Assembly (NCBI RefSeq): GCF_016026235.1 | Contig: NZ_CP065613.1 | Source: Escherichia coli | GTDB taxonomy: Bacteria > Pseudomonadota > Gammaproteobacteria > Enterobacterales > Enterobacteriaceae | Strand: one strand, 5' to 3' | DNA: 64,000 bases | In this document: piece by piece, positions 27,001 through 30,000 of the stretch | Numbering within the stretch: position 1 is the first letter of the stretch | Layout: every line of letters starts with the position of its first letter | Made by a program: the position numbers

Positions 27001-30000
27001 AGCATTGGTTAAAACTGACATTGTTCCTTTATCTTTGATAATAGTCTTGTTTGCCGAACCATATGCGTTTATGTCTAAATGACCACCGTTTTCCAGCAAC
27101 ACATTGTCTGCCACGTGATTGTGGATGGAGAATGCACCTTCACTATTCGTACCGTTCACCGTCGTACCGTTAGTGTTTGTTTTTAAAATTGCACCATCGT
27201 GCTGGGTAACATTTGTTGCCGTACCACCACTAACATCAAGCACGCCACCGGAATAAACTTCAATAACATCCGAGGTGCTGGTGTTATCAACAATTTGCGT
27301 GCCACCAGAATAGATCTGCGTATTTTTTGCCGTTGACTTACTATTCAGAGACTGAGTTCCGCCTTCAATCGTCGTGTCCAGCGCACGGCTCTCATATACT
27401 CTTTGCTCACCGCCATTTTTAATGGTTGTTGTTTCTACTGTGCTCTGTTCAACATACTGTCGACCACCATTTATGGTTGTGTTCGTTGCCAGACTTCCTT
27501 GCGTGATGTCCTGAGAGCCAGACTTATTTATCGTTGTACTGTCGACATGCTCCTGAGTTGTTACTCGTTGGCTGCCACCATCAATGATTGTTCCATTCGC
27601 TGTCCCCCCACTTATGTGTGAATTACCACCCTTAATTGTCGTTCCATTGCTGATACCACCTGTATAAACGTCCTGATTGCCACTCTCGATTGTCGTACCT
27701 GTGGAAATACCCCCGTCATGAATTGACTGTCTGCCACCGTTAATGGTTGTATTATTAGCCTGCCCCACAAAATTGTTATGACTTCCTATATCTTGATATC
27801 CACCAGATTCAATAAGACTTCCATTAGATACCCCGCCATGAACATTCTGCTGGCCATGGTTGATAATATGAGTGTTATTTGTTGTACCTCGTTCATCTAC
27901 TCTTTGGCTGCCATCTACAGTCTCATCGTTTACCACACCAATAACATTAGTAGTGAAAGCAGCCTCTCCAGGCTGGGCATATATTAAGGCAGATATCAAT
28001 AAGGAAAGTACTGAGCGGCGACAATAATGGGGACTGGTCCTGTTCATAAATTTCATCCTCTGAAAAGTGAATACTGAGTAGCGTTTAAGCGACCTTAGCT
28101 TTGCTGCAACATCAGCCCACAGGCACCAGACCAGGGGATTCATCCTGAAGAGACAGCGCAAGTGTATTGTGTTCACCGCTCATCAAAGACATCATGATGA
28201 AATGATGATATTCCGCATAAGAATGAGGCATTTTTTAAACGCAGTGCGCTGAAGTGTGGTTGGATAAAAAAGTCAATCTATTCAGGAAACACGGGCGTAT
28301 TCTTTTCTTTCGACAATGAGGCCGTTGGCAAAATAAAATGATTTACATAATCGTTTCTGATGAATATCTTCTGCTCACATAAAAATCACACAATAACTTT
28401 GAGATCGCAGATTGTTTTACTTTTACAGCATTCGTCCCCCCATTGTTGGGCAAATATAGATTGGGCCAGAGCACGAAAGTTAATACCACGTTCGCACAGC
28501 TCCTCCAACAGCACGACAAGATGCCACATACTGCGCCCCAGTCGGTTCAGTTTACAGACTAGCAGTGCGTTCCCTGCCGATGATGTCCTGAGCAGTTTTT
28601 TCAGTCCGGACCTCCTGCCACGGTTTTACGTTGAAGTGGTAACCCTGAGCACGCAGTTCTTCAGTCAGGCGTGGTGCACCGTAACGCTGTTATTGCTGGG
28701 TAAGCTCAAAAAATTTTCAGGCAGCTAAGGAAAGTTGAACCAGACATTAGATGAAATATTTCAACCAATTACAGCACCAATTCAGTCACCGCCAACCAAC
28801 CAAATAAATCAAGGGGTTACATGAAAACGCAGCCCCTTTTTCTTTGGTAGTGACACTAAAATGGATGTAGTGTGAAGAATAATCCCGTTTACTCAATCAA
28901 TAATACATATTGTTTCAATCTACGTTATTATCTCTTTGTAAAAATTGCCATTTATTTATCATTGAAAACTGCTTTTAGAACTTTATACAAGGGGACTATT
29001 CACAACAGGACTATTCCCAACGGGATCATCCTCAGGAGAACTATCATCAAAGTCATCATCCATAAATAAAATATCATCGAATGGTGCCACGCCCGTGATC
29101 ATTTTTATTTTTTTATTACGATCAGATAAGACTCCATTTAAACCGTTTTCGCTCACAGGTTTTAATGATTTTTCATAACTCTCACTGTTAGCAGGCGTAT
29201 TAAAAATACACGGAGTATCAACATCAAACAATGACGTTCCCCAGTTCACATATTTAATATCATAGTTACTGAAGTTCTGTCCAGAAAAGAAGCATCCCTT
29301 AAAATCCAATCCACGTAAATTATATAAACCACCCTCTTCTTTTTGGAGAGTAATGTTAATTTTGGCTATCTCCCAGACATCATCGCCATTTTTGTATTTG
29401 AATACCGTTTCAAGATGTTCTCCAGACAGCTTGACTTCTGGAAATAATTTGAAATCAAAGCCTATATTATTATGTATCAACGTAGATGAACAAAAAATGG
29501 AAAAAGCTTGCAGTGCTGAATTATAGCTATCGATTTTATCTTGAGGCTGAGCTCTTGGTAAAAACTTATAGCAACACTCATAAAAATTAAACAGAAGCTC
29601 TGAAGACCTTGTATTTTTATCAAATAATACCCCCTTGAACTTCTTCACAAACGCATCTGTTTTTTCTTGAATATCTATGGTGTGTTCCTTTGGCTTTGAC
29701 AAAGATGAAACCTCATCTATTTTGTTTTCATATGAATTACGTGGTTCCATACAGACATTTGGTGGCGTTTCTGAAATAACACTACGCGTACTACCTGGCT
29801 GAAGTGAAGCAACATGAAAATCACTTTTTATTATATTATCGAAAAGGGCCTGTTCATTTCTTTTAGCGGATTGAACATACTGATCAACATTATTTTCTCT
29901 CGATAATTTGTTATTTTCAGAAAACACATTTTCTTTAATCTCCGGTTTTAATTTAATGAGAAGATTTTCCCACTCCTGCTTGCTTAAACATACTACGTCA

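Follow-up and report, generated by a model that had tools for sequence, protein, structure and literature searches.

The window, as we call the whole 64-kb stretch of DNA analyzed here, is part of an E. coli chromosome and carries, between the autotransporter gene ypjA/ehaD and the gene ypjCB, a short mosaic of two degraded mobile-element pieces to which we refer as the scar. Gene order in the window runs from a CP4-57-like element through ypjA/ehaD, the scar, ypjCB, ileY and a ygaQ-like alpha-amylase gene to glaH, and matches that of K-12 and other strains; the K-12 feature table gives the same succession of ypjA, pseudogene pinH (b2648), ypjB, ypjC, ileY and ygaQ. GC content is 33–40% across the 28.5–34 kb stretch, as against 50–57% in the adjacent core genes. 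The genes around the scar are the following.

23461-28176, minus strand: ypjA/ehaD autotransporter ORF, with a likely start at ATG 28047, chosen from its signal-peptide-like N-terminus (MNRTS…)
28983-30332, minus strand: ypjCB, an intact ORF of 449 aa with DUF5507 and DUF5508
31088-31163, minus strand: ileY, tRNA-Ile(CAU)
31723-33975, plus strand: ygaQ-like alpha-amylase-family gene, an intact ORF of 750 aa

A preliminary description of this DNA had placed the scar next to an autotransporter, which proves to be the YpjA/EhaD gene, and at an island end, which is right only in a loose sense: on one side of the scar is ypjA, which comes after the CP4-57-like element, and on the other the low-GC ypjCB-ileY-ygaQ segment. 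The surroundings vary among strains. K-12 has ypjCB divided into ypjB and ypjC, and its ygaQ is a pseudogene. Several other strains have internal stops or IS1 insertions in ypjCB or the ygaQ-like gene, and the contig NZ_CP065615.1 (strain FDAARGOS_943, L001), whose scar is 100% identical to that of the window, has IS600 in ypjA and IS1A in ypjCB. Because these two insertions are absent from the window, we regard the ypjA-ypjCB neighbourhood as a frequent insertion-sequence target. A 39-codon ORF (28112-28231, minus strand) also lies upstream of, and overlaps, the extended ypjA frame; PGAP annotates it in several strains as the hypothetical protein WP_001120794.1, and a Pfam search with it gave no match.

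The scar as a whole spans 28455-28708 (~255 bp), and the interval of the preliminary description, 28430-28740, encloses all of it with small margins. Read along the minus strand, it consists of IS3 nt 1-18, a piece of IS3 orfB and a run of invertase codons, after which unrelated DNA extends to the ypjA start. Its parts, and the K-12 pseudogene that corresponds to it, are these.

28691..28708, minus strand: remnant of the IS3 left terminal inverted repeat (IS3 nt 1-18), TGAGCTTACCCAGCAATA, 17/18 to the IS3 terminus
28617..28690, minus strand: internal fragment of IS3 orfB, 74 bases (IS3 nt ~544-618; OrfB aa ~74-100, HTH_21 region)
28455..28616, minus strand: piece from within a serine DNA invertase gene of the Gin/Pin type, codons ~41-94 of ~184
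28386..28625, minus strand: equivalent of pinH (b2648), from the K-12 feature table (NC_000913.3 2783065-2783304), mapped via a gap-free alignment in which the window coordinate equals the L002 coordinate + 19320

The invertase piece belongs to the Gin/Pin type. Translation of window positions 28380-28760 yields the peptide LNRLGRSMWHLVVLLEELCERGINFRA in one frame of the minus strand, and this peptide matches the Pfam Resolvase profile PF00239 (E = 1.4e-9, profile positions 48-103 of 145). PinE residues 38-94 align to window 28625-28455 with 70% identity (tblastn, E = 1.4e-19). At the DNA level, 28607-28467 aligns to nt 130-270 of pinE in a prophage, where that gene adjoins tail-fibre assembly genes (blastn, 87% over 141 nt, E = 1e-45), and protein-level likeness to PinE continues beyond the DNA-level match, to ~28455. 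What remains is homologous to the invertase-subfamily catalytic (resolvase N-terminal) domain, and it resembles invertases more than it does resolvases. The Gin structures 4m6f and 3uj3 match over residues 39-95 at E = 1.7e-12, whereas gamma-delta resolvase reaches only ~2e-3, and the best phage matches, with 70–74% aa identity, are proteins annotated as DNA invertases in Fels-2, SEN8 and P2-like phages. Since Gin matches far better than gamma-delta resolvase and the best phage matches are DNA invertases, the designation "Pin/Gin-type" used in the preliminary description is correct.

Both ends of the invertase gene are missing. Serine recombinases carry their catalytic serine nucleophile at about residue 9-10. 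Homology in the scar starts at PinE residue ~38-41, with IS3 orfB sequence upstream, so that the N-terminal region with the catalytic serine is absent and ~120 nt at the 5′ end of the gene are gone; it is in the 5′ part that invertase genes of this subfamily have their Fis-dependent recombinational enhancer. It ends at PinE residue ~94 (window ~28455), so that the E-helix and the C-terminal helix-turn-helix are absent as well, and the sequence downstream of ~28455 has no recombinase, phage or plasmid match.

Just upstream on the minus strand the scar turns into IS3. The preliminary description had recognized an IS3-like transposase fragment here from a 22-aa peptide, which we find on the minus strand in another frame than the invertase peptide, and formal searches bear this identification out. 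HTH_21, the N-terminal domain of IS3-type transposases, is matched at E = 3.6e-4 (Pfam); IS3 OrfB aa 74-100 map to window 28704-28624 at 78% identity (tblastn, E = 7.5e-8); and there is nucleotide homology to IS3 itself (blastn, 88.6% over 88 nt, E = 3e-28), which rises to 90.9% against an IS3 variant. NCBIfam profiles give only weak sub-threshold matches to the scar, which the shortness of the fragments would lead one to expect (for transpos_IS3, 14 bits where the cut-off is 160). Plasmid matches cover only the orfB piece, and the plasmid genes so matched are IS3 transposase genes. The DDE transposase that IS3-family elements encode in orfA and orfB, by way of a programmed -1 frameshift, is absent, OrfB aa ~74-100 being all that is left. 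Of the terminal inverted repeats (5′-TG...CA-3′) that bound such elements at both ends, the scar has just the left one, represented by its first 18 nt; when the window is searched with full IS3 (blastn), no right end turns up nearby. Those 18 nt, TGAGCTTACCCAGCAATA at 28708-28691, are what had been noticed as a sequence resembling the IS3 terminal repeat. They agree with IS3 nt 1-18 at 17/18 in the window, 18/18 in K-12 and 16/18 in strain 2012C-4221, and the three-way consensus is the exact IS3 end. The orfB fragment is joined directly to this remnant, with ~525 bp of IS3 deleted between the two.

The window also holds a full-length IS3 of 1258 bp at 53832-55089 (plus strand), flanked by the 4-bp direct repeat CAAC. 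On one side of it is the gene for a proX-like glycine-betaine binding protein (52679-53719), on the other a gene for an MFS transporter (55172-56356). This IS3 begins with the same sequence as the left-end remnant of the scar and is 99.8% identical to a reference IS3 copy from another E. coli strain (L003). To judge from the sequences, this copy is far younger than the IS3 remnant of the scar, and the latter, at 88.6% identity to it, is not recent.

The joins between the pieces can be placed only to within ~3-9 bases. The terminal remnant and orfB meet somewhere within a 13-nt stretch over which the two IS3 regions agree at 9/13. The orfB/pin join falls within 28608-28616, where the window sequence AGGAGGTCC fits neither parent well; over the stretch 28616-28608, strain 2012C-4221 reads ...CAGACCCGGAC, as does pinE, which puts the orfB/invertase join no more than a few bases from 28612-28616.

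Alignment to pin/gin genes and to IS3 thus returned significant matches, far beyond chance, and the mosaic scar of the preliminary description is confirmed as real and correctly read; its interpretation is likewise supported. We hold with high confidence that the region is a mosaic pseudogene without function, corresponding to K-12 pinH together with an adjoining unannotated IS3 remnant, and nothing among the data gathered contradicts this reading. The scar is therefore already known, as the long-annotated E. coli pseudogene pinH, a name that the preliminary description had not attached to it, with ~170 bases from inside a phage-type invertase gene fused to ~90 bases left of IS3, and it is ordinary, inactive, drifting DNA. 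K-12 annotates only the invertase piece as pinH (b2648), and other strains bear at this place the PGAP label [quoted passage not shown]; the adjoining IS3 remnant has no feature of its own in the K-12 and other-strain records examined. Scar DNA is ~99% identical between the window and K-12. In the literature on pinH, b2648, ypjB and ypjC, we found no description of the pinH pseudogene beyond gene lists.

The scar is widespread in E. coli and old. Among 5426 complete E. coli genomes, 3003-3054 cover at least 80% of the scar query and 3091-3428 have the ileY-ygaQ segment, and from these similar counts the scar seems to be present in most genomes with that low-GC segment. Strain 2012C-4221 has the same architecture, with the same IRL/orfB and orfB/pin joins, and retains more pinE-like states (DRP, WKL, MRH). 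Its scar differs from that of the window by 12%, as against 5–6% in the flanks, and for this one lineage pair the invertase frame has a pN/pS of 1.46 and the frame of the antisense ORF one of 1.10. Ratios of this size, together with scar divergence above that of the flanks, indicate that the scar drifts neutrally; the event that made the mosaic, whose junctions recur in a lineage 12% diverged, is an old one. A scan for the junction pattern with one genome per species returned two E. coli-like contigs, and no match from the E. coli representative or from other Escherichia was seen in it. One of the contigs (L008, NZ_JAHZMP010000086.1; 539 bp, coverage 0.74) is filed as Terrisporobacter mayombei DSM 6539 and is 98.3% identical to the locus; the other (L009, DEQI01000374.1; 2799 bp) is filed as a Planococcaceae MAG (UBA3370) and is 94.6% identical. 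Both are most likely E. coli contamination of those assemblies.

The preliminary description had further suggested, with a hedge, that the invertase might once have controlled an invertible segment. Of such a segment we find no trace. We searched the 64-kb window for the 26-bp crossover-site pattern of the gix/hix/pix type, TCNNAAACCNNGGTTTNNGA, allowing up to 3 mismatches, and obtained a single match, at 58176, with 3 mismatches and 30 kb from the scar, where 2.66 matches are expected by chance. The intact pinE locus, used as a positive control, gave 2 matches with 0-1 mismatch that bracket tail-fibre assembly genes. Inverted repeats within 23-34 kb are weak and at chance level, and a search for inverted-repeat recombination sites near the scar found none. 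Since neither crossover sites nor tail-fibre genes lie nearby, and inverted repeats do not exceed chance, nothing speaks for a present or recoverable invertible segment, and we rejected the idea. The best inverted repeat in this stretch (30389-30414 / 31528-31553) is a 26-nt imperfect one, 81% complementary with a 13-nt perfect core, AAAAATCGCTCAT; its arms are 1113 nt apart and bracket the ileY tRNA gene. We estimate that 11 kb of AT-rich DNA would contain about one pair with such a core by chance alone, and the orientation of ileY is constant in 5/5 annotated genomes inspected.

Earlier insertion and deletion, as the preliminary description had proposed, is the simplest history for the scar. 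A prophage-type invertase gene and an IS3-like element would once have lain side by side at the site. One deletion would have removed nt 19 to ~543 from within IS3, another would have run from IS3 nt ~619 into invertase codon ~40, and a further one would have taken the 3′ half of the invertase gene. At least three illegitimate deletions would in this way have left ~255 bp without coding or recombination capacity, before the lineages with the segment diverged; the order of these events, and their having happened in place, we infer from the arrangement of the pieces. The count of deletions would drop if the 18-mer were not an IS3 terminal repeat at all and were instead diverged internal orfB, making the IS3 portion one continuous fragment (IS3 nt ~531-618) with no internal deletion. 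The blastn alignment does carry on in this manner through TTACCCAGCAATA against IS3 nt 531-543 (TTACCCGGTCAAA), with 9/13 matching. K-12, however, fits IS3 nt 1-18 at 18/18, including the terminal TGATC that goes unmatched internally, and four bases mismatched in the internal alignment also fit the IS3 end in K-12; the consensus of three lineages is that exact end, and IS3 homology stops exactly at the terminal TG. We consider a continuous fragment extremely improbable. A less remote alternative, though still an unlikely one, is that the mosaic was assembled on a phage, a plasmid or another island and arrived already degraded with the ypjA or the ypjCB-ileY-ygaQ DNA. The surrounding DNA looks horizontally acquired, given the low GC of the 28.5–34 kb stretch relative to the adjacent core genes, and the scar and the ileY-ygaQ segment occur in about the same fraction of genomes. 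Against it, the joined pieces are found on no phage or true plasmid record, an absence of evidence that does not amount to proof, and among the genomes scanned, one per species, only the two E. coli-like contigs show the orfB/pin junction pattern. Phage records match the 141-nt pin piece and nothing else, plasmid records the IS3 piece alone, and outside these two mobile-element pieces, as far as the ypjA start, the scar flanks show no homology that would point to a phage or plasmid origin.

No function is expected of the scar today. The N-terminal third of the invertase with the catalytic serine and the C-terminal half with the E-helix and DNA-binding domain are lost, and the IS3 piece has no transposase core and a single truncated end. 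Two reading frames nevertheless invite the thought of co-option.

28386-28529, minus strand: candidate ORF of 47 codons in the invertase frame
28360-28728, plus strand: antisense ORF of 122 codons over the whole scar, open in the window, K-12 and 2012C-4221

The scar could encode a small protein, or could contribute a promoter or regulatory element to ypjA, the autotransporter gene next to it, whose start lies ~400 bp downstream. That the antisense frame is open even in the divergent strain 2012C-4221, and that some PGAP annotations put a "hypothetical protein" under the scar match, would fit such a role. Yet the pN/pS values of the two lineages speak for no purifying selection in either frame, divergence in the scar is about double that in its flanks, and promoter-like sites number 2 where 3.4 are expected. 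Strain AR_0061 has lost part of the pin piece, along with the IS3 remnant, to an IS1 insertion. Co-option is very improbable. So is domestication of the scar, be it that the antisense ORF had recently arisen de novo as a gene or that the remnant belonged to the control region of the YpjA/EhaD gene; the antisense pN/pS of ~1.1 and the IS1-linked loss in one strain both disfavour it. We rejected a functional ORF, sense or antisense, on pN/pS of ~1.5 and ~1.1, respectively, and from the latter value the antisense ORF is probably spurious. Promoter-like and terminator-like sites are not enriched at the scar, and in 27500-31800 a search for structured RNAs (Rfam, E ≤ 1) gave only the tRNA and a spurious antisense match to it.

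As a long-annotated pseudogene that was read correctly, the scar is of little importance in itself. It may find minor use as a stable phylogenetic marker for E. coli lineages with the ypjA-ileY segment and in improving annotation, the 92-bp IS3 remnant beside pinH being unannotated in the records examined. It also illustrates how mobile-element genes decay through successive illegitimate deletions.

Comparison with known systems shows how little of each parent is left. The fragment is homologous to the tail-fibre invertases of phages and prophages (Gin of Mu, Pin of e14, Cin of P1, Hin, and those of P2-like phages and Fels-2), but compared with Gin, Pin, Cin and Hin only ~30% of the gene persists, the conserved invertase motif DRLGRS reads NRLGRS, and the scar has neither crossover sites nor adjoining tail-fibre genes. 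PinQ, an intact paralogue in K-12, is reported to invert DNA of cryptic prophages (PMC12529663), whereas the piece in the scar cannot invert DNA. Of IS3 (insE/insF; IS3 family, 1258 bp), the scar keeps the left 18 nt and 74 nt of orfB at 89–91% identity, and it differs from the element in having no orfA, frameshift site, DDE domain or right end. Its closest counterpart is pinH of K-12 MG1655, with which it shares the locus (ypjA-pinH-ypjB/C-ileY-ygaQ), the extent and the junctions, the two being the same feature in different strains. They differ at the IS3 end, which reads TGAT in K-12 and TGAG in the window, and by a few other substitutions, while the neighbouring ypjCB and ygaQ-like amylase genes, split or pseudogenes in K-12, are intact in the window.
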